A DNA stretch of 32,937 bases, from NCBI GenBank assembly GCA_030636255.1, contig DAOVXH010000002.1, positions 1 to 32,937 on the forward strand. The letters are read 5' to 3'. The translations under genes and the position numbers were made by a program. The DNA is from Methanomassiliicoccales archaeon. GTDB taxonomy: Archaea; Thermoplasmatota; Thermoplasmata; SG8-5. Of this stretch, positions 1 through 24,100 are shown in pieces (position 1 is the first letter of the stretch; the number at the start of each line of letters is the position of its first letter). The notes below the pieces were generated by a model. That model worked only from the letters and a program-made list of their open reading frames with translations. It ran no database searches and was not told the DNA's origin.

Positions 1-905
1 TAGGTCAAGCACATAATTATCTTCTGTTCAATCAGATTTCTGGCAAGAAAAGGCAGTGCCAGTATGGTGGACTCATCTGCCCAGTGAATATCTTCAAGTA
101 TGAGCAGCAGCCCCTTTTCTGATGCATTGGACTCGAGTATCTCATGTATCCGATTCTGAACCTTCAATCTCTCCACTTCAAGATTTATGTTCTCAAGGGA
201 ACGTTTGACTCGATATTTTTTTTCCACCAGGCCCTCAATAATACCAATTGAGCCGGATAATGAGTCTAAATCTCCATCCCAGTCCATTAGAAGGTCAAAA
301 TAGGTTTCCTCAATATTGTTGAGGCATTTCTTTATATCCTTTTTCATATCTGGATGTTCATCCCCGGAGGTTACAACTGCCAGGTATACAAGGTCGCCGT
401 GCTCAATTGTAATCTTTGTGTTCAGGTATTCAAGCTTTCCCAGACCGCCTTTCTGTTCTTCGGCCTCTCCATCTCCAAATGAATCCTTTACAAAGTCCTG
501 AACTGCAGTTAGCATTGAACCAAGTATATCCTCGTCAATTCCCTCATCTTTTGACCTTGAAATGTGAGAAATCAAGAGACCTATCTTGCTTATCAGAAAC
601 ACTTCATCAAAATAGGCAAAATCTTCCAGGCTGAAAAGAGCATCTTCGGCAATATCGCAAAGTGCCCTTTGAAATCCCTGGTAAGGGATGCCAGCATCCT
701 GAATTGTGCACTCGCCTTTACATATGGGAATTCCTGATTCTGTAGCAATATTATCAAGATAATCCGTCAGCGTGGATTTTCCAATACCTGCCTCTCCATT
801 AATCAGAAGAATCTGGCCCTGGCTCTCAAGAGTTCTTTTGAATGCTTTATCTATTATTTCTCTTTCTGGCTTACGGCCAATCATGTCAATTTGAGGGACT
901 CTCAT
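1..905 (-). CDS. STAND-like AAA_16 / COG3899-type ATPase, 5' part (runs off the window), with an inserted longin/roadblock-like domain
   Basis: Not in the ORF track; translated by hand from ATG at 905 (MRVPQIDMIGRKPEREII...). Shows the 'IGR..E' N-terminal motif, Walker A GEAGIGKS (774-797) and Walker B LLLILEDIHWAD (~76-111). The frame is open to position 1. Confidence 0.85.
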   Translation of the reverse strand, partial: MRVPQIDMIGRKPEREIIDKAFKRTLESQGQILLINGEAGIGKSTLTDYLDNIATESGIPICKGECTIQDAGIPYQGFQRALCDIAEDALFSLEDFAYFDEVFLISKIGLLISHISRSKDEGIDEDILGSMLTAVQDFVKDSFGDGEAEEQKGGLGKLEYLNTKITIEHGDLVYLAVVTSGDEHPDMKKDIKKCLNNIEETYFDLLMDWDGDLDSLSGSIGIIEGLVEKKYRVKRSLENINLEVERLKVQNRIHEILESNASEKGLLLILEDIHWADESTILALPFLARNLIEQKIIMCLT

Positions 906-955
906 CTAACCTAATCAACATGAGCGTGATAGGAATTAATATTTTGGGTATTATC

Positions 956-1726
956 CTACCGAATCTTCCTTCTGGTGATAAGACCAAAACCTACTATCAG
1001 GATAGTTAATCCAACAAGAACAGTCAAAGCAAATATCCAGTCACTTCCGCCTTCTATGTAGAAACGGTCCTCGACAATCATGTCTCCTGCCTCAAGGTCA
1101 ATTACCCCATCGCCATTGAGATCAACTAATATTTTAGAATCATGCCATCCTGGTTCCTTGTCTGTTGCAATCCATTCAGAGGATGTTGTTGTTGTCTGCA
1201 TGGCAGGAATAGAATTGATTAACTGATGGTCTATCTCAACCTCATCTACCAGGAATCGAACCGTAACATTATTCACCATTACATTGGAGGGATTCTTAAT
1301 CTCCGCGCTTATATGGATAGGTGCCACGACAATAATTGGCTGAACCTTTTCATAGTAAAGGGTTCCAGATGTGCAATTTACATGAATGTCAAGTTCTCCT
1401 GCTTTTGACATGCCAGTTATATTGAATGAGAAGGTATAGTTTCCTGGGCTTATTGTTCCATTAACTGCCTCTGGCTCCAGTGGGGATGCGCCGGAAATAT
1501 TGGCTCCATCAACATACACCATGTAGCTCCATTCCCTGTTATCTGGGTCAATAATGGTTCCTGTATAATCTCCGCCACGGAGAGTTCCAATGACGGAAGG
1601 TCCGTTCAACTCAACACGAATACCTGTTGTATTGGTTTGTGCCAGGGCAGGAGGTATAATCTGCATTAACAGCACTGACATCAGTAGAATCGCGACAAAT
1701 GATTTTATAATATTTCTTGAACTCAT
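956..1726 (-). CDS. Secreted, C-terminally anchored Ig-fold (CARDB-like) membrane protein
   Basis: Signal-peptide-like N-terminus ending ALA-Q, CARDB-like segment 'ISAEIKN...NVTVRFLVD...GWHDSKILVD', C-terminal TM followed by RRKIR. ATG at 1726 is preferred because GGTGA lies just upstream, overlapping the aglB stop. Confidence 0.7.
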   Translation of the reverse strand: MSSRNIIKSFVAILLMSVLLMQIIPPALAQTNTTGIRVELNGPSVIGTLRGGDYTGTIIDPDNREWSYMVYVDGANISGASPLEPEAVNGTISPGNYTFSFNITGMSKAGELDIHVNCTSGTLYYEKVQPIIVVAPIHISAEIKNPSNVMVNNVTVRFLVDEVEIDHQLINSIPAMQTTTTSSEWIATDKEPGWHDSKILVDLNGDGVIDLEAGDMIVEDRFYIEGGSDWIFALTVLVGLTILIVGFGLITRRKIR

Positions 1727-1731
1727 TGCAA

Positions 1732-4700
1732 TCACCTTATCCACCTCTTCTTTCTGGCATAGTAGAATAGTCCAAGTGCAACGCTAACTGACATCACCAT
1801 GACTCCAGCATTTGTCATTTCATCACCAGCTGCAATTGTTGAAACTTCTTCACCAATAATGGTCACATTGTCTGTGTATATCTGAAGTTCTGGATATCTC
1901 AGTATTATGTATTGGGATGTTGGTGCTGAGCTGCCACTTTCAGAGTAACCTGTTATAAGCACACTTGCCTGCCTAGATGGGTTTTCTGCAATAGGCGTTA
2001 TGGTGATTGGGATATCTGAAACACCGCCAGAAGCTATGCTGAAGTTGAATAATCTTGTATTGTCGTTGAGAAGTTCTGCTCCATCAACAGCACCAAGTTC
2101 AGCCTTCCATCCATTTGCTGCTAAATCATCTAGATTTCCAATATACAGTGTGACTTTGTCATCACCATTGCCATTATTTTTGGCTGCAAATACAGAGGAT
2201 ATTACATCGTTCATGAATATAGGGGAACTTGCAAGTGGCTCTATTGCCAGGACATATGTTTGCTTGATATCCACATTGATAATCTCACTTGATGAAACGG
2301 TTGGGTCATTCTTTGACACTACCGCCAGATTAATTGCGTTTTGGGAAATCTTAGCGCCTTCTGGAATTGTCGCAGTAATGGAGGCAGTGCTATCCTGGCC
2401 TGCATCAATAGTTACTTCATACTTGTTAAGTTCAAATATCCAATCAGGATTTCCTCCTGTAGCACTGATTGTGTAGGTATCTTGTATATTTCCAAGATTA
2501 CTTATATCAAATTTGTAGGTCACAGTAGAATTGTCTGGCGTCTCCTTCAATTGGCCTATGTCATAGGTTAAATCAACGTTTCGGTCCTCAACCATTGACA
2601 TTGCCAGATTCATTTGATTGCCACTATCGACTATTTCAAAGGTCTTGCTGACATTATAACGAATTGAGACACCATCAACCTTGGCATTTACTGAACTGGA
2701 CACTGCGTAATTTCCTGCAGGCAACCATATTTCATAGAAACCATTCTCATCGGTAGATGTTGGGATTAGGCTTATGTTTGACTGGAATAGGAGTTCAGTA
2801 ATTCCATACTGGTTAAGGCCATAGTAGGCAGTTCCGAATATTCTATATCCCTTTTCCATATCAAAATCTACATTTATTGAATCCAAATCAACTATTAGTA
2901 AATCCAGATAGGTGTTGTGAGAGAACTGGTCATGGATATGTACTGTGTAAACATTTGGTTTCAAGGCAATTTCATAATGGCCAAGTGAATCAGTAATTGT
3001 TGTGAATTCCTCCTCAAGTGAATAGAACACTATTTCAACGCCTGCTGCACCGTTTGATAGGTTACCAGAAATAACCGTGTAATGGTCTTCTCGCTCCAGA
3101 AAAATTGATAGAGAAGAACTGGTATTAGCATTCATGGATTCGTTTGCATAGTAATGGTATGCCTTCATATCATCGCCATCATATGCCACGAAGTCAACTG
3201 CAAGGTCATATAATCCATCTAATTCCAGTACTGCCTCGAATGTTCCAACCTCATCAGTTTTCACGATTATTGAGCCATTACTGTTCTGATCATTAAAGAT
3301 TATAACTTGTGAAGGCATTGCTTCTGTGCCATACACAATATCTCCTCTAAGCACTCTTGCATCTCTGATTTCTACAGAAATGCTGCTTGAGTTTTCAGAC
3401 ACAATAACATCGTTCATACCAACAAAGATTGTACTATTATCTGCATATGATGCTTTTACCACATAGCTGCCTGGCATGATATAGAAATTTCCTGAACCAT
3501 TGTTCACATAATATCTTCTATATTCTGGACCATTCTCAAAAGTTATATTTGAATTCAGAGGGTAATCGCTAATAACAGAGATATCAAAGTTCTGTCTAAT
3601 CTTTGCGTTTAGATCAAGTTCTATTGACCTTCCATCATAAACACCAGTAGAAAATTCATAATTATCGTCTATCTGGTAAACTAGCGAATCATTATTCTGA
3701 GATATATTCTGTATGAAATAAACTGAATACTGGCCAGGACCAAGTTCTCCACTATAGTTTCCATCCCTTCCTACCTGAATCTCTTTGTAATTTGATTCAT
3801 TGGTTGTTGATTGGAATTTGAGAATTATATTCTGATTCTCGAGTGGTGTGTCATCAAGAGATAGAGTTCCAACGATTGGCAATTTTACTGGAACCATACT
3901 CTTGAATATGCCATCTGACAGTTCGTCAGCCATGAATGTACCCAGTTCAATCAGTTCAAATCCTAACTTGCTTATCATTACTTGATACTGAACATCTGGC
4001 TTTAGATTTATGGAAAAGGTTCCATTAGTATCTGTGATTGCCCCTTCAAATTCACCTGATGGTTCTTTGAAAATAACACTTGCATACTCAAGTCCAATGC
4101 CATCCCAAGAGATAGCACCCGAGACTGGTGTGCCTGCCAGAACTGTAATGTCCATATTATATGAGGCAGTAGTGAAATCCTGAGTCTTGTAGAACACATA
4201 GTTGTTAGAAGATATCTGGATGACATACTCTCCCTTTGGAATATTCACTGTATAATCACCCTGTGCATTAGAGTATACCATCATTGAATATCCATTGGCA
4301 ACTTCCTCTATGTAAATTGGCAAGCTGCCTGCAGAAGCACCATATTGATTTGATATGTGTCCATTAAGCATTGTTCCATGCTGGAGATAGATCTCAGCCC
4401 GGGCATCCCCATCAACTATCAATTTTGTGTTTACTGCATATGTTGAAGAACTAATAGTGCATTCAGAATATAGATTGTATATATCATTTTCAATCCAGGC
4501 AGAGTAATTACCAAATTCATCTGTTGTCAATATAAAGTCAGTATATCCAGTTAACCTCATTTTTCCATTTGGAACTGGTGTGTCATCAGGGAGCCTTAAT
4601 GTTCCAGATAGGTATGATGATTCGAACAATATGTAATCATTTGTATTGTTCTCTCCCGGGACAACCTCTACGCTCTGCAAATTACTGGCATATCCCTCAA

Positions 4701-7700
4701 CATAGGCCTGTGTTGTGAAGAGGCCTTGAATTATATTTTCAAATGTATAGTTGCCAAATTCATCAGTCTGGACTGAGAAATATATCTCCTCACTTGGTGA
4801 AAATAGGTTCACATTCGCGAAATCAACCGGGGTGCCATCAATAAATGTTACTGTCCCGCTCATGGAAACTGAGGGGACAATAAACTGATCTGTGTTAACT
4901 TGACCACTTGTGATTATTATACTTACGGTTGTCAAGCTGGTTCCAGCCACAGATAATGTTGCAGAATATCCGCCAGGTGGAAGTGAGCTGATATTGAAAA
5001 TCCCTCTATCATCTGATGTAGATATTATATCAAAATCAATGCTGTTATGATTCATGTGTATTTCCACATCAGGTAGTAACTGATCTGTTTCATCAGTAAA
5101 GGCTTCATCACCATCTATGTCCCAATAAGATATACCAGCAAAGTCTCCACTATTGATTATTATGTCCTGGTCAATGAGATAATCTGGCTTTCCATTATTG
5201 TCCCTATCTTCATCTTCTCTCATTGCCTGGTAGTCTTCGATATGCATTGAAGTTAAGTTCAACTCAGAACCTATAAGGCTCATTGGATCCATTGGGCCAA
5301 TGGAAGTTGTAAGAGTTATGTCACCATATGGTACAATAATAGAATAACTTCCATTCTCATCGGTAACAACTCTCTGATGAGGTATGCTGAAATCATCTGT
5401 TACTGTAATTGCGATGCCACCAAGGGGTGTACCGTCTTCCATGGTTACCTTGCCGCTTATTATGGCACCATCATAGTATTTCAACATCATTACGCCCTGA
5501 TAAAGGCTGGAACGGTCGCTAAGGTCAGAAATACCATCACCGGTCATTTGCCTTTCATATGCATCCCAGAAGTTCATTGCCTGCCATGCATCCGTGTGAT
5601 TTTGAATTTCTTCTGCTCCATATGGATTCCAGTAGGCTGTTCTGTGTTCAAGTTTGAAATGGGTCATATTCCAACCAGGCATTATTGCTTCAGTGGCCAT
5701 TGATTCAGTCAGACCTGGAATTCCTGCGTCCTCACCCCGGCCAACATCTTCTCCACTGTAGCCAATGAAACATTTGTATAGCATTGAATTGTAGAACATA
5801 TCATTATAGATAATCTTGTAGGGATTTTCTTGATCAAGTTGGACATCCATTGGTATATCATCCAAATCATATTCACCACCAAATTCTCCAATTGCCTTGA
5901 TTTCCCAGAAATCATATGGCTGATTGCCAATATCATCTATCCTGTGGTCAGAAAGTTTTGCTGGAGCATAGAAGATTCCAGTATTGTCTGCGGAGAATGG
6001 GAAAAGACGACTGTCAATTCCAAAGTATCTAATCGAGTTACCAGTAAATTCACAAAGATCATTGTAAAGGTTTACAACACCCTCTTCGTCAAGTTCATTG
6101 GTTATCAATACCCTTAGCAAGATATAACGGGCATTCTTCTCCTGAATTATATCATCTCTTGGGCCGTATATCTCAGGATGTGCTAATATGTCATCAACAT
6201 AATCTCCAGGGTTCTCAAGATAATCATTCAGAACATTAACATCAATACCATATGATTGCATCATGCTCTCAATTTCTATGTCTAAATGATTCTCTACACC
6301 CTCGTAATTTCTTCTCCAGTTTCCTTCAAGGATTCTGGCACAGAGCAATGATATGGCATCTGCCTCACTCTGGCTCATTATGAAATTACCAGCTAGTTGG
6401 TGACCTCCAAGGAAATTATCTGCAACTGTAGGGTGGTCCCCCTCATTGACTACCTCAAACCCGTAATCCCACCAGCTCAGGAACGCAGGACGTTCGGAGG
6501 CAGGGTAAATTTCAGTGTCTTGAGTGGCAAGCCAATCATAAGCAGCAGGCCAATATCTACTGTTCAGTGGCAGTGAATAACCAAATCCACCAAGGAACCA
6601 GTTTGTACCGTTTATTGGGTCATAATTGGATGGCTGCATGAATATAGGAGCAGACTCATAGATCTCAAGGTCATAATCATTCTTCACTTCGTAAGGAATA
6701 CCTGCATCAAGGCCGCCCCAGACATTTGGCATTATAACGAAGAATGCCAGGAATACAATTCCTGCTGTAAAAGTGAATCTGGTTTTCCGGATGTTCATAT
6801 AAAGAACGAAGTATCCGAATAGTAGAACAAACAGTAAGAATCCGTGGGTGGCACTTGTGAACTCCCAATCAGTATAGAATTCTGAAAGGATGTAGAACAA
6901 TGCGCCTGAGATGGGTATCAATGCGGTTAATAGATTATATGTCCTGTTTGGATTTGTCTCAGCTATAAGGTTCAGCATGTATATTCCAATAATTGCAGCA
7001 AAACCGATTACAAAGACAGGATATGCAGCATTGGATATTAGGAACAATACTAGAGACAATACAACAAGAAGTGCAGTGGAAACCAACATACCCATTTTGA
7101 ACTGTGTGGACATGTGAGCTTGTGCAGATCTTTTCATGTTGTCTGTGAACTTCTTGATATCCATTTTTGTTATGAGCAATGCAATAATCCATCCAGCAGT
7201 TATGGCAAAGGCCGGCCCTGCATTGAACATAAATCTTGCTGCTGTGACTGCCATGTAAATAGATATAGCTGTCCACAAAGTGATAAAGGTGAAATCCGAC
7301 TTCCATGATTTTGGTAGCTGGATGGCAGCCCATGCAATTCCTATGAACGACAACCAGAACGTGAACATTCCGAATGACATTGCCAGATTACTGAATGGAG
7401 GTGCCTGCGCCTCTGCAATTGTCTGATACTGTTTGTTCTGAATGAAATAACCTGCACCACTAGCCACAGTACTAACAAGTGTGTCCAGAAGTGAAGGGGT
7501 AATTACTGCAAGCAGAAGTACCGATATTAGTCCAATACCTATCATACCGGAGAAAACCAGTATCCAAGGGAGCTTTCTTGTTACTATGAGTGCAAGAGCA
7601 AAGGCAGTTGCACCCAGGAACATGTAAAATGGCGTATCGAACCAGCTTGGTACCTGAAGGGACTGGAAGTAATATGGGAACGCAATAAGCAGACCAACTC

Positions 7701-8871
7701 CAACAGCCACAAAATAGATTGCCAGAACTCCGAATGAATCAATATTACGGAATTTATTTATCAATAACTGGATGAGGAAGTAGGCAGTCATAAGAACTAT
7801 GACATATGCATAACCTTTCCATATCAGGGCAACGCCGGCAAGAGATAGGCCAGCCATAACTGCATAGAGAATTGGAACCCTATTAGTCTGAACCAAATCT
7901 TTCACGCCACTAAATATGGCATCTGGTTTGCGCCAGGTGCTAATCCATTCCTTTTGTTCCATTAATTTCAATGCCTTCAAGAAGAAGAAAAAGGTTGTAA
8001 CAATAAAGAACAGAGCCATTGCGTCGTGGTCAGCGTTTGTGAGAACACTTCTTTGAATGTGACCAGGCATAACTGCAAGCAAGAATGCTGCAATCATTCC
8101 GGTTCTCTTACCAAATGCCTCTCTGGCAAGGAAGTATGTTGGGAAGATTGTCAATGCACCCCAGAATGCTGTTGAGAATATGAACACATAGAATGTAGCC
8201 TCATACTGGCCATCTTCGAAGAATGGTGAAAGAGCCAGGCCACCAAGTGTGACTGACCAGTCATAGAGTGGGGGACGTGGGTTCCTTGTACCCAGTGGAT
8301 AATTTAGCATGTCATCCCAGAAATGATGATCCCCAGTATCGGATGCATAATCTATCACAAAGTTGTGATAATACGAGTCAGAACCACCAGATAGTATAAA
8401 CCCATCTTCAGTTGCAGGCACAACACCATAATAAGACCTGACAAATAATGCAAGACAGAATATGAAAACAAGGATTGCCATTACCTTCCAGTTCTTTCCA
8501 ATCCATGTTCTTGCGAAGGTTGTAAGTGGATTGAAGCCTGGCTTCTTTGTTTCCTTTGGAACATCTTCTTCCTTTCTATCGCGTCTTCTGCTTTGTCTGC
8601 CTGTTTGTGTGGGTGTTGTATCAACTGTTTCGTCCTTGAACTCCAAAGAATCAGACTCATCAATGTTTTCATCTTCGGTCTCAAAGGTCTCTGGTACCTC
8701 TTCAGGAATTTCTTCCTCGGGAGATACTGGCATGGGTACTACTGGTTGCTCAAGAGCTTCCGGGTCAGAGTTTTCTACTTCAATCTGTTCAGTAGGCTGC
8801 TCCGGTTCCGGTTGCGACTCTGCAATCGTTTCCTGGACATCTTCAGAACTATCTTTCTTGAGCCACTTCAT
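1732..8871 (-). CDS. aglB: Giant oligosaccharyltransferase AglB/STT3 with C-terminal carboxypeptidase-regulatory-like and Ig repeats and a C-terminal TM anchor
   Basis: STT3 motifs GSDSYYH, NADHD (DxD), TIAE (TIXE) and WWDYG; polytopic N-terminal half; repeated 'G.V...TD..G.Y' beta-sandwich units; terminal TM plus RKKRWIR. Start is ATG 8871 (GGTGA RBS) or GTG 8880. Confidence 0.93.
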   Translation of the reverse strand: MKWLKKDSSEDVQETIAESQPEPEQPTEQIEVENSDPEALEQPVVPMPVSPEEEIPEEVPETFETEDENIDESDSLEFKDETVDTTPTQTGRQSRRRDRKEEDVPKETKKPGFNPLTTFARTWIGKNWKVMAILVFIFCLALFVRSYYGVVPATEDGFILSGGSDSYYHNFVIDYASDTGDHHFWDDMLNYPLGTRNPRPPLYDWSVTLGGLALSPFFEDGQYEATFYVFIFSTAFWGALTIFPTYFLAREAFGKRTGMIAAFLLAVMPGHIQRSVLTNADHDAMALFFIVTTFFFFLKALKLMEQKEWISTWRKPDAIFSGVKDLVQTNRVPILYAVMAGLSLAGVALIWKGYAYVIVLMTAYFLIQLLINKFRNIDSFGVLAIYFVAVGVGLLIAFPYYFQSLQVPSWFDTPFYMFLGATAFALALIVTRKLPWILVFSGMIGIGLISVLLLAVITPSLLDTLVSTVASGAGYFIQNKQYQTIAEAQAPPFSNLAMSFGMFTFWLSFIGIAWAAIQLPKSWKSDFTFITLWTAISIYMAVTAARFMFNAGPAFAITAGWIIALLITKMDIKKFTDNMKRSAQAHMSTQFKMGMLVSTALLVVLSLVLFLISNAAYPVFVIGFAAIIGIYMLNLIAETNPNRTYNLLTALIPISGALFYILSEFYTDWEFTSATHGFLLFVLLFGYFVLYMNIRKTRFTFTAGIVFLAFFVIMPNVWGGLDAGIPYEVKNDYDLEIYESAPIFMQPSNYDPINGTNWFLGGFGYSLPLNSRYWPAAYDWLATQDTEIYPASERPAFLSWWDYGFEVVNEGDHPTVADNFLGGHQLAGNFIMSQSEADAISLLCARILEGNWRRNYEGVENHLDIEIESMMQSYGIDVNVLNDYLENPGDYVDDILAHPEIYGPRDDIIQEKNARYILLRVLITNELDEEGVVNLYNDLCEFTGNSIRYFGIDSRLFPFSADNTGIFYAPAKLSDHRIDDIGNQPYDFWEIKAIGEFGGEYDLDDIPMDVQLDQENPYKIIYNDMFYNSMLYKCFIGYSGEDVGRGEDAGIPGLTESMATEAIMPGWNMTHFKLEHRTAYWNPYGAEEIQNHTDAWQAMNFWDAYERQMTGDGISDLSDRSSLYQGVMMLKYYDGAIISGKVTMEDGTPLGGIAITVTDDFSIPHQRVVTDENGSYSIIVPYGDITLTTSIGPMDPMSLIGSELNLTSMHIEDYQAMREDEDRDNNGKPDYLIDQDIIINSGDFAGISYWDIDGDEAFTDETDQLLPDVEIHMNHNSIDFDIISTSDDRGIFNISSLPPGGYSATLSVAGTSLTTVSIIITSGQVNTDQFIVPSVSMSGTVTFIDGTPVDFANVNLFSPSEEIYFSVQTDEFGNYTFENIIQGLFTTQAYVEGYASNLQSVEVVPGENNTNDYILFESSYLSGTLRLPDDTPVPNGKMRLTGYTDFILTTDEFGNYSAWIENDIYNLYSECTISSSTYAVNTKLIVDGDARAEIYLQHGTMLNGHISNQYGASAGSLPIYIEEVANGYSMMVYSNAQGDYTVNIPKGEYVIQISSNNYVFYKTQDFTTASYNMDITVLAGTPVSGAISWDGIGLEYASVIFKEPSGEFEGAITDTNGTFSINLKPDVQYQVMISKLGFELIELGTFMADELSDGIFKSMVPVKLPIVGTLSLDDTPLENQNIILKFQSTTNESNYKEIQVGRDGNYSGELGPGQYSVYFIQNISQNNDSLVYQIDDNYEFSTGVYDGRSIELDLNAKIRQNFDISVISDYPLNSNITFENGPEYRRYYVNNGSGNFYIMPGSYVVKASYADNSTIFVGMNDVIVSENSSSISVEIRDARVLRGDIVYGTEAMPSQVIIFNDQNSNGSIIVKTDEVGTFEAVLELDGLYDLAVDFVAYDGDDMKAYHYYANESMNANTSSSLSIFLEREDHYTVISGNLSNGAAGVEIVFYSLEEEFTTITDSLGHYEIALKPNVYTVHIHDQFSHNTYLDLLIVDLDSINVDFDMEKGYRIFGTAYYGLNQYGITELLFQSNISLIPTSTDENGFYEIWLPAGNYAVSSSVNAKVDGVSIRYNVSKTFEIVDSGNQMNLAMSMVEDRNVDLTYDIGQLKETPDNSTVTYKFDISNLGNIQDTYTISATGGNPDWIFELNKYEVTIDAGQDSTASITATIPEGAKISQNAINLAVVSKNDPTVSSSEIINVDIKQTYVLAIEPLASSPIFMNDVISSVFAAKNNGNGDDKVTLYIGNLDDLAANGWKAELGAVDGAELLNDNTRLFNFSIASGGVSDIPITITPIAENPSRQASVLITGYSESGSSAPTSQYIILRYPELQIYTDNVTIIGEEVSTIAAGDEMTNAGVMVMSVSVALGLFYYARKKRWIR

Positions 8872-9007
8872 TCTATTCACCAGTTGTATGATTTGAGTAA
8901 CCTCCCGATAATCTGGTCTTATATATTACTTTGCATATTGTATATAGTATATTATGGGGTATAGCCAGTTATTAAATTATATTCTCTTGAATTAAAATTA
9001 AAAGAAG

Positions 9008-9290: not shown

Positions 9291-12200
9291 CTACCAATCA
9301 ACAACCCAGTCAACATTAGCATTTACATGAACCCAGTAGGCATTTCCAGCAGCCATTGTGACTGAGCTGAGGTCAGTTTCATCCCTAATTAAAGATGGCT
9401 GAGTCTTATTAAATACCGAAATAATATCAACTGAACCAGGCAGCGTGGTACTCGCCAGTCTATCTGTTCCAGAAGGATAACCTACAAGATTCCATCCAAT
9501 TTTCAGATTTATTGTAGTAGATGGCTCTGAAGCACCGTAAACATACAGGGTAACATCTAAATTAGTTACATTTATCCAGAATCCCATATTGCTGTCTAGG
9601 CCGAAAGCGTCATTGAGTGAGGGTGACCTGTCCAATCCATAGGTTAGCCAGGGATTCATAAGTGTGTCATTATATGTGGCTACTCTGTCCCATTTTCCAT
9701 CAATTGAAGATAATACTGAGGTAATTGAGGTGTCTACCTGCTTCCAAGGCACAGAAACCATATTCCATCCTTGTTCCAGAGAAATAGCATATGATGGCAG
9801 GGGTGCAGAAATCCAACTATTTTCTGTTGTGAATGGCCAGTTGTCCTGATTGTTGCTTACAACACCACCAGAAGATGGAGAATCGTAGTAAAGTTCTACA
9901 AACTCACAGCCTGTGACTGAAGGCTCGGCATACTCGGATATAACCAATCCAGCAGTTTCATCCCCATTAATCCCTGAACCTGGGGTGGCGGTGATGTCAG
10001 CATCCGCACTGATCACCCAGCTAGTGGCGAGTGACCCGTCATGATTTGCACTAATCCGTTGGCAAGTACCGGATGTGAAAGGCTGGCCTGTCTGGCCATC
10101 AAGCAGGGTATTTGTGTCGTCATAGAGCTCATAGGTTTCATCTCCATTGAGAGCGGGGGCCGTCCCCTTGGAGCTGATTGGATCGGCGTTGTCAAGGTAG
10201 AGCACGTTGGAACCCAGAGTTATGCCAAAGTGAGTTTCAAAAGTGCTTTTAGTGGAGTCCCTAGCAATTATCAAATAACCGCCTGGTTCTATGCTCATGG
10301 CAGGGGGGATTGTAGTGGTCTTGGTCGAGTCATACTGCTCAATGCGATATCCTTCCAGGTCAAGTGGAACACCGCCTCCACCACCAGTTGGTATTATGAA
10401 CGGGTCATCGACGAATCCATCAATGTTTGCATCAGGAGTTGTCCAGTTGTCGAAGAAATTGCCTCCCACGGGATATCCCATGTCCCAAGTGTTGAGGCCG
10501 GCATCCTTGGTGTGGTTCGTATTGGTAAGGAAATTATTGTGGAAAATCGTATTCCAGGAGCCCTGAACGTTCATGCCCAACTCGGTTGTGAAAATTGTAT
10601 TGTTCTCAAGGGTATTATTGTCACACCCAGATGTCAGAAATATGCCATTGTAAACTCCAGTGATATTATTGTCTTCGATATTGCAGAGATCAACATTGTT
10701 CAGCTTGATGCCGCAATCGGTTGCCAGTGCTCCGCCATTGACTATCTCGAAGCCGCTGAGCTCGACGCCATTTGCAAGTATCTCGACTACAGTTCCGGAG
10801 CCGCCACCATCGATTATTACATTTCCTGCTGTTGCAGTAATTGTCACTGGCACATCAATAACAACGTTCTCGAAGTATGTGCCATCATCAACCATTATCC
10901 TGTCTCCAGAGGTGGCATTGTCGATTGCCCACTGTATCATGTGATGGTCTGTGCCCTGGTCTATATTATGTACTGGTCCAGGAGGAGCGTTCCAGCCTTC
11001 TTGAGAGGCAAAGGGTAAGTAATCCCTATTAGTGCCCCCTCCGCCGCCTGTGACCGGGGGATTACCTGAGCCCCATATGGAATCCACATACTCGGGATGA
11101 TCGATAAACGGATTTCTATTGTTTTGATTTGAATAGACAATTTCATTTCTGTGCCTGTCAATATCGTCAACTGGGTCATTAATATGCCACTCTAAGAGAG
11201 TTGAAAGTTTTCCGAATATTGACCCGGAAGTTGGTACATAATCAACAAGTTCTAGATCTAATCCCACATTATCCCATGAATCGCCGTCATACCTTGTAGC
11301 CATGTAAAACATCATTCTTGCAATATCCCCTTTAACCGCATCTCTGGGTTCCCATGAATCTGAATCAGAATAGCATTCGGTTGCTTCGGAATTTTGAACG
11401 CCTCCGTTGTCAAAGTCTAGATTACCTCTATCAGAGTTCACAGAAACATCAGACGGTCGCAAATGGTGGGCATCTGTACCCGCTGGAGGTGTCTCACTAA
11501 AATCACCGTGGGATTTTGCCCATACATGTTCTCTGTTCCAATCTGGATATACAGAAGTTTTTGGTATTGACCGTCCCGTATAAAGCAAAATAAAATTATC
11601 AGAATTGTTCGGATCTTCATCAGATTCTGGTAAAATTGTCCATAAATTGTCATAACTTTTTTCCGTATGATTCCTAATTATAATATGAAGGGCATCTTTC
11701 AAATCGTCCCCGACCTTTCCAGCCGCTGCATCATAGTATCCAGCTGGTATATCTCCGCTCTCTCCACCACCTGGAACAGAATATATATTGTCAACAAATC
11801 CATCAAAGTTATTGTCAGGGTTTGTCCAGTCAGACCAGTAATTGCCTCCGGTTGGGGAGGTGAGGTTCCAGACATTTGAACCATCATCATAGGCCTGGAC
11901 CGTGTTTATCAGAAAATTATTGTGATAAATCGTGTTATTGTGGGTCCCATTATCAGATTTCAGACCATATCCGTTCATTGTTATGTCATTCAGTGTGAAC
12001 TGGCACCAGTTGGAGTTGTTGAGGTAAATGCCATTTCCGACATTGCCATTCATTGTGTTATTGGTCACATTGCCATTGACCACATTGAAAAGCGTGACAC
12101 CAGTGTTTGTGAAGTACGGACTGCCAGAGCCCCCGCTGGCATTGGAAAAGCTGCAATGAATTATTCTGAAGTGGTCTGTGGTATTTCCGATATAAATTGC

Positions 12201-12443
12201 ATACCCAAAGCCTGCTGCTTCAATCTCAAGGTTCTCTATCACCCAGGGGGTGCCTGGGTTGCCGTCACCTGAGGAGGCATAGGCTGCGAATTGGATATTT
12301 GAATTAATTCTTATGGGGGAACTGGGAGCCAAGGGTTCTGCAGACTGGCTCTTTTCACCCGCAGTCTCTCCTGGATTGAAAGAGATAAACGCACCACTGA
12401 ATGCAATCAATACGCTGAGCCAGACAACAAAGAATCGCCTCAT
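9291..12443 (-). CDS. Secreted multidomain nuclease: NosD-like beta-helix, endonuclease I (Bsn-like), second beta-helix, lamin-tail domain, C-terminal 'GWN' repeat domain
   Basis: Signal peptide from MRRFF (ATG 12443, GAGGAG RBS); endonuclease I motifs WNREHVW, TDAHHLRP, KGDIARMMFYM and NRNPFIDHPE; parallel beta-helix 'N.I..N..GI.L' repeats; LEQGWNMVS and LKIGWNLVG repeats. Confidence 0.85.
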   Translation of the reverse strand: MRRFFVVWLSVLIAFSGAFISFNPGETAGEKSQSAEPLAPSSPIRINSNIQFAAYASSGDGNPGTPWVIENLEIEAAGFGYAIYIGNTTDHFRIIHCSFSNASGGSGSPYFTNTGVTLFNVVNGNVTNNTMNGNVGNGIYLNNSNWCQFTLNDITMNGYGLKSDNGTHNNTIYHNNFLINTVQAYDDGSNVWNLTSPTGGNYWSDWTNPDNNFDGFVDNIYSVPGGGESGDIPAGYYDAAAGKVGDDLKDALHIIIRNHTEKSYDNLWTILPESDEDPNNSDNFILLYTGRSIPKTSVYPDWNREHVWAKSHGDFSETPPAGTDAHHLRPSDVSVNSDRGNLDFDNGGVQNSEATECYSDSDSWEPRDAVKGDIARMMFYMATRYDGDSWDNVGLDLELVDYVPTSGSIFGKLSTLLEWHINDPVDDIDRHRNEIVYSNQNNRNPFIDHPEYVDSIWGSGNPPVTGGGGGTNRDYLPFASQEGWNAPPGPVHNIDQGTDHHMIQWAIDNATSGDRIMVDDGTYFENVVIDVPVTITATAGNVIIDGGGSGTVVEILANGVELSGFEIVNGGALATDCGIKLNNVDLCNIEDNNITGVYNGIFLTSGCDNNTLENNTIFTTELGMNVQGSWNTIFHNNFLTNTNHTKDAGLNTWDMGYPVGGNFFDNWTTPDANIDGFVDDPFIIPTGGGGGVPLDLEGYRIEQYDSTKTTTIPPAMSIEPGGYLIIARDSTKSTFETHFGITLGSNVLYLDNADPISSKGTAPALNGDETYELYDDTNTLLDGQTGQPFTSGTCQRISANHDGSLATSWVISADADITATPGSGINGDETAGLVISEYAEPSVTGCEFVELYYDSPSSGGVVSNNQDNWPFTTENSWISAPLPSYAISLEQGWNMVSVPWKQVDTSITSVLSSIDGKWDRVATYNDTLMNPWLTYGLDRSPSLNDAFGLDSNMGFWINVTNLDVTLYVYGASEPSTTINLKIGWNLVGYPSGTDRLASTTLPGSVDIISVFNKTQPSLIRDETDLSSVTMAAGNAYWVHVNANVDWVVDW

Positions 12444-12536
12444 ATATCTCCTCTCGGGATAGGGATAAATATGCAACCCATCTCCAATTATAGTAATGTA
12501 GCTAAAGGCATTTAGAGTTTATGCCTATACAATATA

Positions 12537-21136: not shown

Positions 21137-24100
21137 TTAAAACTTCAAAGCAACCTTTTTCTTGGCAACTCTTGGAGCTTCATCTTTCTTTTCTTCGGCA
21201 GGTGGCTGAACTGGAGGTGTTGGTGGTTTTTCTTCTGGCTTGTCCTTTATTGTATCGCCATCCTCATCTACAGGTACCGGTTTCACTGCTGTTGGCTTGT
21301 CTAAATCGTCTATAATATCTTCCGAGGCAGTTTCGTCCATCTTTTCTGTATACTCGGTTCCACATCCAGTACACTTGCCGAACCTTCTTGCACAAAGAGA
21401 GTGATATTCATTGCCGCAGGAGCATCTTACTATGTCTGTACCAGCTTTTGCCTTGCCCATGCAGATATCGCACTTGGTATCTACTGTGGCCTTCAATTCT
21501 TCGAATGTTGATTCAACTGATGGTTTGGCTGCTTCAACCTTTGCTTCCATGACAAATACATGATCGCTTACCTCATCCTCGAAGACCTTGCCATCCATTA
21601 TTCTTGTGGATGATAATTTGATTATGACTGGAACATCTCCAAGTGTCTCAAATTTCATCTTCATCTTCTGGATTATTTCACCGCCGCCGCCTCTGAGAGT
21701 CTCGATTGGTTTAAAGCCACCAATGGAAATGTCTCCAATGATGTTTACTTCCACATCCTTGGCAAGGGCCTTTCCCTGATTTTTGATAACCAGGTCTGTA
21801 TCAACCCATTCTCCCTTCTGGACCTTATCTACAATTATGTCTGCTACAAGCTGTGGTCTGAAGGCATCTACTTCATTGTTTACTACCTCAATGGTCTTTT
21901 TCATTGTGGCCAGTGCCATCTGATAATCCTTATCTTTCTGGTCTTTTGCCTGGTCAAAGAGTGTCTGAGCTTCCTTCACATTGATGCCAAATTTCTTTGA
22001 ATTGGAAATGATTTTATCGGCTTCGTAGGTAAGTTCAATAAACTCTCTCTCGAAACCCTTCTCAAGGTCTATGGCATCTTTGGATTTCTCCACATGCCCA
22101 ATAGCCTCCCTGTATTTACCCTGATCAAATGCAGCCTTTGCCTTGGTCAGAAGTTCCTGACTGGCATCTATGTCAGCACCAACCTGCTTTGCATGTTCCA
22201 TTGCACGCTCTGATTGCGAATAATGGTCCTCGAAGAATGCCTTTAATTTACCCTGAATATCCTCCAAGGTGGTGTTTATCTTCTCACTGGACACTTCAAA
22301 TTTGCCAGTATCCAGGAAGGTCTTTGCCTCTGCTAGAAGTGAGCTCGAACCTGCAACATCTATGCTATACTGGCTTGCAAGGTCACTTAATTTGTAGGTT
22401 CTTGAAAGTTGTGTGGTAAGATGTGAATTGGACAGTCTCCTGGCCTCCAAAGCACCCTCCCTGGCAATTTCGGTGGCAGTCCGGTAATCATTGCCTGCCT
22501 TTGCACTTTCTGCATCAGCCAGAAGTTTTTCGGCGATTGCCACATCTGCCTTGATATTCTTGGCAGAGTTAATCTGGGCATTAAGAGTTTGGATAGCCTC
22601 CATTGTCTCACTGTAATCTTCGCTAACCTCATGAAGTTCATCCCCACTTTGGATAGCTTGTTCCAGGGCCTTGACATAATTTCCTTTCTTCATCTCATCC
22701 CTGGCCTGGGAGATTATGGCCTTTGCTTTCTTGGATACAATGCCTATGCCCTCTGCCTCTTTGAGTTTATTTTCGGCTGTGCTTATGGCCTTCTCGGCCA
22801 TCTCCTGCTGGAGGCCAACCTTCTCAAGTTCACCTTCACTCTTCATTGCCTCTGACAGGGCTGTTTTATATTCCTTATTATTGAAAGCATCGGTGGCTTT
22901 GTCCATGAGTTTTTCAGCCGCATTAACATTAATTCCTTCCAGCTTTGCCTTTTCAATTGAAACCCTGAATGCTTTTATTGTATCGGAAACATGTGCTTCT
23001 ATAGCCTTTCTGGATTCTGAAGCACTTTTAACTGCCAGGTCAATTGCCTGCTGATAGTTCGAATTGTTAAGCTCGGTGAGTGCACCCTCGAGCAATTTTT
23101 TGGACTCAGGCATACTAGCATGAAGAGTATCACCATCATTCAAGGCATCCTGGGCATTCTTGAGTTCCATGGCTGCCTTCTTGCTGAAATTTCTGATATC
23201 TTCAAGCTCAAGTTTCACCTGCTTGGCCTGCTCAACTGCTTCCTTGAAATTTTTACCACCAAAAGCACTTCTTGCTGATTCGAGCCGTTCTTCCTGTGCA
23301 GTGATTGCCAGATTCAGGTCCTTGGCATCCATCAATGTAGATTGTGTTGCTGATATCAAATTTGAAATTCCTGGTTCGATGATTGCCAGTGTATCCTTCT
23401 CCAGCTTATCTGCAAGTGGTAATGCATCTGTTTGATTTTGAGCCTTGATGTGATTGGATAGCTCATGGGCATTGCCTTCAAGATCACCAGCTTCTATCTC
23501 CAGCTCTTTCATAAGCGCAAGGCTTTCTTCAACAAAGCTGAGTTTGCTGGCTGCAGTGTAAAGGTTCAGCATAACTTCTGTTTCCTCTTTTGCCTTCTCA
23601 GCTTCCTTGAGTGCATTTTCATAATCAAATCTCTCGAACATGCCCTTTGCAGAAAGAAGGATTGCCATTGCTTCTTTTACATCGACCTTGTTCTTCTTGG
23701 CCTCTGCAAGTATTGCGGCTGCCTGATTAATTGCATCATAGGACTTCTGGTGGAAGTCAATCTGTCTTTCAGCAGAATCCTTTGCCCCCTTGCTCTCCAT
23801 GTGGGTTGTGAAGAAATCGGCCTTGGAAAATGCGGTCTTTGCTCTCTTTAATGCCTCTTTCATGTCTGAAATATCAATTCCCAGCTTCTTGGCCTCGATG
23901 GCAGCCAGTTTACCCTCGCCAAACATTCGCTCGGCTGCTACATATTGCTGGTTCTTTGCATCTGAGAGGGATTTTTCAGCATCAACCAAAACACTGGAAA
24001 AGTCCCTGTTATTCATCATATCATCGCATTTATTGCTTGTATTTTCAAGTGCCTGAACATCACAGCCCATCTTCTTTGCTACGGTTAAAGCCAAGTTAAG

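Follow-up and report, generated by a model that had tools for sequence, protein, structure and literature searches.

The window, a 32,937-nt stretch of DNA from a Methanomassiliicoccales archaeon, begins with a gene for an AAA_16/MalT-type STAND ATPase with a TPR sensor arm (the arm being assigned from an orthologue and paralogues), and the nucleotide-binding domain of this protein carries an extra module that is predicted, with good confidence in the structural model, to have a longin fold. This module is one member of a large family in archaea, for which Pfam and NCBIfam have no model and which might serve as a docking platform for Ras-like small GTPases.

Only the 5' part of the STAND gene, including the longin insert, is present (3..905, minus strand; ORF and Pfam evidence), since the start of the window is also a contig end (C163, 1-32937) and the remainder of the gene is missing there, which limits the value of the window. 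The frame starts with an ATG at 905 and stays open at the window edge after 301 codons (301 aa); its absence from the ORF list, pointed out in the initial annotation, arises because the frame runs off the contig end and the list omits such frames. The sequence features of STAND/AAA_16 proteins are all found, namely a Walker A of the form GxxGxGK[ST], a Walker B followed by HWAD, and an AAA_16 match above the cut-off (two stretches, E 5.1e-17, 63.3 bits against 32.6). Walker A, read from the sequence as GEAGIGKS, comprises residues 37-44 (774..797, minus strand), and its G37, G40, G42 and K43 are invariant in 57 STAND-type family members. The Walker B strand (LLLILED, then IHWAD) and AAA_16 signature, likewise read from the sequence as LLLILEDIHWAD, occupy residues 266-277 (75..110, minus strand), and EDIHWADE is invariant in the alignment of the protein with bacterial homologues. 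Both motifs are about 230 residues apart, close to the roughly 220 first estimated, with an insert of about 135 residues between them.

Full-length orthologues are found in the locus L014 (982 aa, 71% identical) and in P0033 (986 aa, 63% identical). P0033 contains TPR_12 in seven stretches (E 3.8e-52) and a TPR_MalT region (E 6.9e-13), and a C-terminal repeat sensor arm is seen both there and in paralogues of the same genome as the window, in the part that lies beyond the cut gene. The initial annotation had expected TPR or effector domains: the TPRs are present in P0033, but the domain search of this protein detected no DNA-binding or other effector domain. Since the window gene ends at residue 301, the core domains were assessed on a 460-residue model of the 71% identical orthologue (pLDDT 87.6), which shows an NTPase domain followed by a helical and a winged-helix domain and resembles MalT (Z 16.0), Orc1/Cdc6 (15.7), NRC1 (15.2), Apaf-1 (15.1) and the STAND-TPR protein 6mfv (13.9). 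The STAND-type class originally proposed is thus upheld by the AAA_16 match and by the likeness of the orthologue to MalT, Orc1/Cdc6, NB-ARC proteins and Apaf-1. With AAA_16 STAND ATPases bearing TPR or SUPR arms, such as E. coli MalT (8bob) and the archaeal STAND-TPR protein 6mfv, the protein shares Walker A, the EDIHWAD Walker B signature, the NTPase, helical and winged-helix core and the C-terminal TPR array; P0033 differs from MalT-type relatives in its lack of a detected DNA-binding or other effector domain. The main difference concerns the P-loop domain, where strand 2 and the Walker B strand are linked by a short helix-loop-helix in MalT and 6mfv, whereas the window protein has a separate domain of about 135 extra residues at that place. 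The best MalT chain (8bob_C, Z 16.0) aligns over 276 residues across model residues 2..460 and, therefore, its alignment skips the insert.

The insert comprises residues about 95-232 (210..623, minus strand), as delimited by the model, fold searches, the family profile and its lack in bacterial homologues, and agrees with the discrete module of about 125 residues initially placed at 240..612. Six bacterial AAA_16 homologues align on both sides of it without the insert residues, and bacterial loci span query residues 4-301 in about 177 codons; judged from these alignments, the module of about 135 residues is a true insertion relative to the bacterial homologues. The AlphaFold2 model of the insert (pLDDT 84, pTM 0.76) has the order beta-beta-alpha-beta-beta-beta-alpha with extra C-terminal helices (DSSP: E3-12, E17-22, H31-49, E63-66, E69-75, E79-86, H91-107, then the C-terminal helices), and the identical order of strands and helices is found inside the 460-residue orthologue model. 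A five-stranded antiparallel sheet in the longin order beta-beta-alpha-beta-beta-beta-alpha-alpha is present in the model. All 14 Foldseek matches against the PDB at E <= 0.001 are longin or roadblock domains, and so are the best 50 of 48,161 chains in an independent VIA search. Longin matches of the latter cover residues 4..138, with synbindin (2zmv_A) at Z 12.3 over 122 aligned residues with an rmsd of 2.9, and Sec22 (3egd_C) and Fuzzy (7q3d_C) at Z 12.0 each. The strand and helix order and the longin/roadblock-like character read from the sequence in the initial annotation are therefore reproduced by AlphaFold2, Foldseek and VIA, and the ordinary helical AAA_16 insertion that it had named as the alternative is ruled out by the predicted fold and by best structural matches that are all longin or roadblock domains.

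Roadblock/LC7 domains have the order alpha-beta-beta-alpha-beta-beta-beta, with an N-terminal helix and no C-terminal helices. The insert model does not follow this order, as it begins with two strands and ends with helices, and roadblock matches cover its residues 2..110 only (Z 8-9). The Pfam model Robl_LC7 (PF03259; gathering score 23 bits) is passed by 2 of 11 paralogue modules, for example by the C156 copy with 25.5 bits, but the window copy has no match. No Pfam longin model scores above its gathering score either, Fuz_longin_1 reaching E 0.026-0.13 in 2 of 11 paralogue modules without matching the window copy; NCBIfam has no match for the module, and its profile finds only chance-level matches among PDB sequences, the best (E 0.031) being a de novo designed protein.

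The absence of GAF, PAS and profilin entries among the best 50 structural matches also bears on another reading, according to which the insert would be a ligand sensor of the wider profilin/GAF-like fold group, binding a small molecule or peptide. A pocket could be lined by the acidic and aromatic residues that are strictly conserved (DxD, F, W), and a module gene of the same genome (C37) stands in a row with a gene for V4R, a domain described as small-molecule binding in the available part of bioRxiv 10.64898/2026.10.19.760177. However, the TPR arm already provides a sensor, and this reading is considered highly improbable.

Eukaryotic and Asgard longins, including TRAPPC4/synbindin (2zmv), Sec22b (3egd/1ifq), VAMP7, the AP sigma and mu N-terminal domains, Mon1-Ccz1 (5ldd), Fuzzy (7q3d) and the Lokiarchaeota Roadblock-Longin protein 8yqg, have the same topology as the insert and match the whole 138 residues with Z 10-12.3, an rmsd of 2.6-3.2 A and 118-122 aligned residues. 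Many of these longins serve Rab, Arf or SR-beta GTPases as platforms, and the module family described here likewise travels with Ras-like GTPases. However, the insert shares only 4-15% sequence identity with them and reaches the cut-off of no Pfam longin model, its host is a Thermoplasmata-type archaeon, which is neither Asgard nor eukaryote, and the module lies inside a P-loop ATPase or on receptor tails.

The profile built from paralogues matches window nt 213-617 (E 6.9e-52) and finds 12 more copies elsewhere in this genome of about 2 Mb (E 9e-53 to 4.8e-17), far more than chance would give, so that 13 are present, 6 of them in the nucleotide-binding core of STAND proteins. In a public library, 6070 representative clusters carry the module at E <= 0.001. 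Three settings are seen, namely within STAND ATPases, at the cytoplasmic tail of membrane or surface proteins, and in small or multi-copy proteins; tail-type modules end receptor-like proteins on four contigs of the genome (C184, C72, C16, C15). Other arrangements in this genome include a Robl_LC7 gene that overlaps a GvpD/KaiC-like ATPase gene (C136), a module fused to DUF835 and TPR (C165) and the module gene in the C37 row with V4R. A locus search with the single 301-aa protein kept 80 loci, of which five archaeal ones (L014-L018) carry the insert and the others are bacterial or unclassified records matched in the AAA_16 flanks only; named relatives are Methanomassiliicoccales, Thermoplasmata or Methanobacteriota MAGs. 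A phylum-wide search with the same protein, in which seven candidates were scored per genome, gave matches at E <= 1e-30 in at least 9 of 301 genomes, a figure that measures the range only weakly. In a quick tree of the modules, all 72 STAND-embedded copies lie on one side of a well-supported branch, apart from the tail modules, and this grouping fits an origin of the STAND copies by a single insertion event. Both types of copies have in common the invariant D, D, M, A and F of the first helix and a nearly invariant W and G in a loop. In the window insert, the helix starts with DEDILGSMLTAVQDF (residues 124-138; 492..536, minus strand) and the loop is W-D-G-D (residues 209-212; 270..281, minus strand). 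The available text of the literature consulted (including PMC10936438, PMC4316618, PMC4915359, bioRxiv 10.1101/2020.10.19.343400, bioRxiv 10.64898/2026.10.19.760177, PMC7159879, PMC13734099 and PMC10933270) mentions neither STAND ATPases with an internal longin domain, nor longin expansions in Thermoplasmata, nor longins fused to receptor tails.

The genome encodes nine Ras-like GTPases, Rab/Ras-like by Pfam (Ras and Roc). This number would suggest an Asgard archaeon, an assignment that was rejected in view of the named relatives given above. Among 151 genomes of the class, 102 carry both the module and Ras (E <= 1e-15), 5 only Ras, none only the module and 44 neither. The co-occurrence with small GTPases that the initial annotation proposed to look for is, thus, complete for the 102 genomes with modules, although it should not be taken as many independent events, since the signal is carried by a few large clades in which both features are lacking. 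There is also a family whose genomes each have a single module and a single GTPase; here the genes of both stand side by side in the same direction in four of five genomes. Moreover, in five well-assembled genomes of the same order, and among the matches listed, 8 of 53 GTPase matches have a module within 500 nt (0.95 expected) and 11 of 53 have one within 1500 nt (1.93 expected). Every close pair among these matches involves a module at the end of a reading frame, that is, one of the tail type, and the STAND-type module nearest to any GTPase is 8.8 kb away.

In the genome of the window, a pair of this kind is found on C16, where the GTPase gene comes after the gene of a 440-aa membrane protein with a module tail. 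Complex prediction for this tail-type paralogue, and not for the window insert, gave a score of 0.71, against 0.12 for the best of three controls, although one of three runs scored 0.00 and few contacts were common to the runs (contact agreement at least 2%; partner pLDDT at least 63). Of solved complexes, 116 of 157 reach the mark used, as do 2 of 215 mismatched pairs; these figures are only rough here because custom alignments were used, and the score may reflect solved longin/roadblock-GTPase complexes already known to the predictor. The predicted interface holds 8 of the 17 positions of >= 80% identity (3.2 expected; p 0.004) and includes the first-helix residues equivalent to DEDILGSMLTAVQDF, as a predicted GTPase-contact surface, together with the loop equivalent to W-D-G-D. 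Between the C16 copy and the window insert, 12 of 25 interface positions are identical, against 27 of 109 elsewhere, and the interface-equivalent residues are invariant or nearly so in the 57 STAND-type members. This conservation could also reflect a structural or dimerisation constraint on the helix, which counts against GTPase docking.

Comparable arrangements are known from bacteria. As in the MglB/Roadblock-LC7 and MglA pair and in the actinobacterial conservon, a small alpha/beta platform gene stands here beside a Ras-like GTPase gene with predicted contact to its switch regions, and the GTPases are Rab/Ras-like by Pfam. In the available part of PMC4316618, the conservon is described as a sensor kinase, a roadblock protein and a small GTPase, and so it resembles the present case in bringing together a membrane sensor, a platform domain and a GTPase. 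The same source (Wuichet and Sogaard-Andersen), as far as available, describes Group 1 Rup GTPases as Ras-like proteins that lack the catalytic glutamine and whose genes neighbour those of uncharacterised membrane-linked proteins; the GTPases beside tail-type modules have Ser in place of this Gln (DIIGS), whereas the Rup systems are bacterial, with coiled-coil, OmpA-linked, c-di-GMP or kinase partners.

The surroundings of the STAND genes are different. Upstream of the window gene and co-directional with it lie a gene for a 262-aa membrane-anchored protein with a weak CARDB match (956..1744, minus strand), which ends 50 nt before the STAND start, and a gene for a 2382-aa STT3/AglB-like oligosaccharyltransferase with CarboxypepD_reg repeats (1732..8880, minus strand). 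The order of the 262-aa protein and STAND genes is kept in L014, where a protein of 1730+ aa takes the place of the 2382-aa protein (a correspondence based on position); the STT3/AglB-like gene is regarded as context and may not be part of the system. The five other STAND-type genes of the genome have PfkB kinase, AdoHcy hydrolase, AsnC-type regulator, KaiC-like ATPase, MobB and surface protein genes as neighbours, and a fixed STAND operon was discarded because no constant partner stands beside them. Neither the 32.9-kb window nor the 6 kb around each of the five archaeal STAND-insert loci L014-L018 contains a GTPase gene, and only one of the six STAND-type genes is on a contig that also has a GTPase gene, the unrelated PfkB kinase and AdoHcy hydrolase genes lying between the two. 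The placement of a regulator gene beside its GTPase gene, as with MglA and MglB, is thus found for tail-type members but not for the window gene and its orthologues. Since no examined STAND copy directly neighbours a GTPase, docking by the STAND copy of the window is something that we only infer.

Two of the six STAND-type genes (the window and C171 copies) directly follow genes for giant surface proteins, which favours a different partner for the insert. Longin and roadblock domains are typically homo- or heterodimers, and Mon1-Ccz1, MglB and Ragulator subunits pair with one another. The insert could, thus, pair with the longin tails of surface or membrane proteins and bind no GTPase, the STAND protein then being the cytoplasmic transducer of these receptors; the same module closes the cytoplasmic tails of receptor-like proteins in this genome, as described above, and dimeric entries (8yqg, 9jue) are among the fold matches. 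However, the module profile has no match in the 2382-aa and 262-aa proteins of the window, and the STAND-embedded modules form their own clade, separate from the tail modules; such pairing is judged unlikely.

The location of the insert inside the nucleotide-binding domain would also suit a built-in regulator that controls hydrolysis, exchange or oligomerisation of its own ATPase in cis, with no outside GTPase. The Roadblock/LC7 superfamily was proposed to consist of general NTPase regulators (Koonin and Aravind 2000, as cited in the available part of PMC4316618), and other pairings with P-loop ATPases occur in the genome (C136 and C165). Nevertheless, the conserved residues of the STAND copies are the same as in tail copies, which have no ATPase, and the distribution of the family follows that of Ras-like GTPases; control in cis is regarded as distinctly unlikely.

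Docking of GTPases is the preferred explanation, held tentatively and with somewhat less than even confidence, in which the module family is a GTPase docking platform and the ATP switch of STAND proteins governs the presentation of the longin. The family would dock Rab/Ras-like small GTPases, several per archaeon, through contacts of the beta1-beta2 turn, the first helix (DxD..GML.A.Q.F) and the W-x-G loop with the GTPase switch regions, and the docking surface would be retained in the STAND copies. Sensing of a ligand by the TPR arm would be followed by nucleotide exchange and oligomerisation, and this ATP-driven switch would set the presentation of the longin module, probably through clustering, whereby the STAND ATPase might recruit or regulate a small GTPase; in reverse, the ATPase could be gated by a GTPase that binds beside its nucleotide site. 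In other STAND and initiator ATPases a helix-loop-helix lines the hub, and the inserted longins would occupy its position. It is even imaginable, although rather doubtful, that longin-bearing STAND proteins are ATP-driven hubs whose oligomerisation builds multi-longin platforms switching Rab-like GTPases, with longin-tailed receptors feeding the same GTPases.

Longin and roadblock platforms and expanded sets of small GTPases are usually viewed as eukaryotic and Asgard hallmarks. The uncultured Thermoplasmata-type archaeon described here, with its genome of about 2 Mb, has 13 longin-like modules and 9 Ras-like GTPases, the modules belonging to a family that remains invisible to annotation based on Pfam or NCBIfam because neither library has a model for it. 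The coupling of the STAND insert to a GTPase or to a partner longin is what we infer from these observations; if the insert docks a GTPase, it would be a direct physical link between an ATP switch and a GTP switch, in a compact system for study. If longin-bearing STAND proteins do act as hubs, they would represent a prokaryotic counterpart, outside the Asgard archaea, of the multi-longin GEF/GAP complexes known from eukaryotes, and longin-GTPase signalling networks would not be special to the Asgard-eukaryote line.

At the left edge of the window lies the 5' part of a STAND ATPase gene on the reverse strand (3..905), a 301-aa open frame that starts with ATG at 905 and runs past the window edge; since the window starts at a contig end (C163:1-32937), the gene is truncated by the assembly. 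Its absence from the ORF track, pointed out in the initial annotation, is explained in the same way, because ORF lists that skip open-ended frames miss it. Walker A (GEAGIGKS, residues 37-44) and Walker B with the AAA_16 signature (LLLILEDIHWAD, residues 266-277) can be read from the sequence, and between them residues about 95-232 (nt 210-623) make up a longin-fold insert, which contains the stretch quoted earlier as a longin/roadblock-like module at 240-612. The Pfam AAA_16 match to the 301-aa protein is split in two (E 5.1e-17; 63.3 bits, cut-off 32.6). Moreover, six bacterial AAA_16 homologues are alignable on both flanks of the module and have no residues at its position, about 177 codons spanning query residues 4-301 in their loci, and in an AAA_16 paralogue on contig C47 of the same genome the flanking matches are only about 47 codons apart. 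Judging by these alignments, the module is an insertion in an AAA_16 ATPase.

The rest of the protein can be followed in orthologues. P0033 (986 aa), with 63% identity to the window fragment over 297 residues, carries a split AAA_16 followed by TPR_12 in seven stretches and a TPR_MalT region, and thus provides the TPRs that had been expected in the missing part of the gene. The orthologue of the archaeal locus L014 (982 aa) is 71% identical to the window protein, and its first 460 residues were modelled with a pLDDT of 87.6 and a pTM of 0.73. The elements of this model succeed one another as a strand leading into the P-loop (31-36), a helix (43-56), a strand (60-65), a short helix (76-82), a strand (94-97), the longin unit (99-227), a strand (231-234), a long helix (242-261) and the Walker B strand (266-271), after which the P-loop fold is completed and a helical domain and a winged-helix-type beta-hairpin follow. 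The closest structure is MalT (8bob_C, Z 16.0; 276 residues aligned across model positions 2..460), and other top matches are Orc1/Cdc6, the NB-ARC domains of NRC1 and ZAR1, Apaf-1 and the archaeal STAND-TPR protein 6mfv. Taken together, the model and these structural matches put the insert in the helix-loop-helix that separates strand 2 from the Walker B strand. In oligomeric STAND and initiator ATPases, an element lines the hub; by the order of elements and general knowledge, the insertion site would correspond to this hub-lining element.

The longin/roadblock-like fold proposed for the insert is borne out by structure prediction. The AlphaFold2 model, built from alignment A2 (the window module with ten paralogue modules plus 23 short proteins of the module family in full length), has a mean pLDDT of 84.0 and a pTM of 0.76 and shows two strands, a helix, three strands, a helix and further helices. 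Foldseek against the PDB returned 14 matches at E <= 0.001, all of them longin or roadblock proteins, including AP sigma and mu subunits, Mon1-Ccz1 and COPI zeta, and in VIA, an independent structural search that compares all 48,161 representative chains, longin or roadblock domains filled the 50 best entries. Eukaryotic and Lokiarchaeota longin domains match the whole insert model (residues 4..138; synbindin, Z 12.3; Sec22 and Fuzzy, both Z 12.0; VAMP7, Z 11.4; a Lokiarchaeota Roadblock-Longin protein, Z 10.2), whereas the roadblock domains of MglB, LAMTOR and Asgard Roadblock proteins match only residues 2..110 (Z about 8-9), and the modelled insert is therefore assigned a longin topology. 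The signal at the sequence level is thin: Pfam Robl_LC7 is above cut-off in two of 11 paralogue modules and not in the window's copy, Fuz_longin_1 matches two of the 11 faintly, and searches of NCBIfam and, with a profile, of PDB sequences gave no match to the module.

The module belongs to a family with several architectures. The genome (1.70 Mb, 210 contigs, 77% complete) holds 13 module frames, six of them of the STAND type (the window, C94, C45, C42, C200 and C171); the module also forms the C-terminus of two large surface proteins, each with a transmembrane helix (C184, C72), and occurs in membrane proteins of the multi-pass (C16) and zinc-ribbon (C15) types, a small zinc-ribbon protein (C156), a 582-aa DUF835-module-TPR protein (L110 on C165, 321-2066, reverse strand) and, as a divergent copy (E 4.8e-17), a 314-aa protein on C37. 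The latter opens a three-gene row (L109, 3483-5333, forward strand) that continues with genes for a V4R-domain protein and for a canonical Robl_LC7 protein; at L111 (C136, 1256-4487), another Robl_LC7 gene overlaps the start of a gene for a GvpD/KaiC-like P-loop ATPase, and both adjoin ftsZ.

A profile search of 1.84 billion representatives with the module gave 6070 clusters at E <= 0.001, of which 4203 reach E <= 1e-10. The best 150 proteins contain 170 full modules, 66 flanked by Walker motifs, 53 at a protein end and 51 otherwise placed. To the last group belong the double or triple copies of giant proteins; in P0001-P0016 (1300-2400 aa), these copies are about 500 residues apart, accompanied by CARDB and DUF5915 matches. 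In the ESM Atlas, the module's nearest neighbours are archaeal clusters without a name, from Thermoplasmatota and Methanobacteriota, and an Asgard cluster named Roadblock/LAMTOR2 follows at rank 16. The loci closest to the window protein belong to MAGs labelled Methanomassiliicoccales archaeon, Methanobacteriota archaeon and Thermoplasmata archaeon. In a maximum-likelihood tree of 181 modules, the result of a quick search only, a branch supported by an SH-aLRT of 96 separates off 75 rows, namely all 72 STAND-embedded copies and three short or different proteins; this topology fits a single insertion event followed by expansion.

Small GTPases accompany the module. Nine Ras-family GTPases (E 1e-27 to 1e-40) are encoded in the same genome, and among 151 genomes sampled from the class, 102 have the module (E <= 1e-5) and 107 a Ras-family GTPase (E <= 1e-15): 102 have both, five the GTPase only, none the module only and 44 neither. 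The suggested co-occurrence with small GTPases thus holds for every module-bearing genome of the class sample, although it rests on few independent events, because the genomes without both fall mainly in three families (f9, f13, f20). Every genome of family f11 has one module and one GTPase, and in four of five examined the GTPase gene is directly upstream, on the same strand, of a gene for a ~1350-aa surface protein with the module as its C-terminal tail (gaps of 48 nt in L107 and 19 nt in L108); in the fifth, the two genes are on different contigs. Across five well-assembled genomes of the window's own order, two of them of one genus, 8 of 53 GTPase matches lie <= 500 nt from a module match (0.95 expected under random placement) and 11 lie <= 1500 nt away (1.93 expected), every close pair involving a module at the end of its frame. 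On C16, a 296-aa GTPase gene follows the gene for the module-tailed membrane protein by about 160 nt. Six of the nine GTPases are extended at the C-terminus by a helical stretch of about 110 residues; those noted for the extension or for a change of the catalytic Gln are at C16:14458-15348 and C45:5996-6892 and on C43, C126, C40 and C63 (loci L012, L005 and L099-L103). GTPases adjoining tail-type modules carry Ser in place of the catalytic Gln of DxxGQ (DIIGS) and the C45 copy carries Arg; the Ser is compatible with a partner that would supply the catalytic residue and is no proof of one.

Complex prediction was applied to the C16 tail-type module, a paralogue of the window insert, and its neighbouring GTPase, with alignments A5 and A4 for both chains. 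The pair scored 0.71 (three runs: 0.73, 0.00 and 0.71) against 0.12 for the best of three controls, with runs agreeing in at least 2% of contacts and a partner pLDDT of at least 63. Of 157 solved complexes, 116 reached this mark, as did two of 215 mismatched pairs; these counts hold only roughly here because own alignments were used, and the pass may reflect likeness to known structures, since longin/roadblock-GTPase complexes have been solved. On the GTPase, the predicted interface takes in the strand at the N-terminus and residues 37-44 (switch I threonine plus the next strand), 59-63 and 73-82 (switch II); on the module, it takes in the beta1-beta2 turn (13-17), first helix (29-47) and loop 112-116. 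Eight of the 17 module positions at least 80% identical among 32 sequences are among the 25 interface residues of the module (3.2 expected; hypergeometric p 0.004). Between the C16 copy and the window insert, 12 of 25 predicted-interface positions and 27 of 109 others are identical, and across 57 STAND-type proteins the predicted-interface residues G, DxD, M, A, Q, F and W-x-G show no or almost no variation. Since conservation itself informs such predictors, this agreement is not entirely independent.

Nevertheless, no GTPase gene was found in the window or <= 6 kb from the five archaeal STAND-insert loci L014-L018, the STAND-type module nearest to any GTPase in the five well-assembled genomes is 8.8 kb away, and the other STAND-type genes of the genome have varied neighbours, all of which counts against a GTPase link for the window gene. 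The first-ranked alternative is that the insert pairs with the longin tails of receptors. The STAND-type copies of the window and C171 are located after genes for giant surface proteins, that of the window (1732-8880, reverse strand) encoding 2382 aa that begin like an STT3/AglB oligosaccharyltransferase (E 1.1e-20), continue with CarboxypepD_reg repeats and end in a membrane anchor; between it and the STAND gene lies a gene (956-1744, reverse strand) for a membrane-anchored protein of 262 aa that matches CARDB weakly, and this order is kept in L014. These neighbours fit a receptor link as well as chance. Regulation of the host ATPase in cis and sensing of a ligand by the insert rank second and third. 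On C200 (L007), a same-strand gene at 563-2206 (reverse strand) shares about 40 nt with the end of the STAND-insert gene; its 548-aa product weakly matches the tubulin/FtsZ GTPase domain, at 28.9 bits where the cut-off is 33. The remainder of the window (9291-32937) contains further long frames, such as 21137-25879 (1580 aa) and 9291-12476 (1061 aa), with no match to the module or GTPase profile.

Published accounts, in the portions searched, already describe single Rab-like genes in a Thermoplasmatales archaeon and Aciduliprofundum (PMC4915359) and roadblock/longin expansions and fusions in Asgard archaea (bioRxiv 10.1101/2020.10.19.343400); in those portions of the literature, no description was found of a longin domain inside a STAND ATPase or of longin expansions in Thermoplasmata. 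The favoured reading of the module family, tentative and with somewhat less than an even chance of being right, is a GTPase-docking system, in which longin modules would serve as a platform for Rab/Ras-like GTPases, acting perhaps as GAP, GEF or effector site, and STAND proteins would present this platform under the control of their ATP switch.
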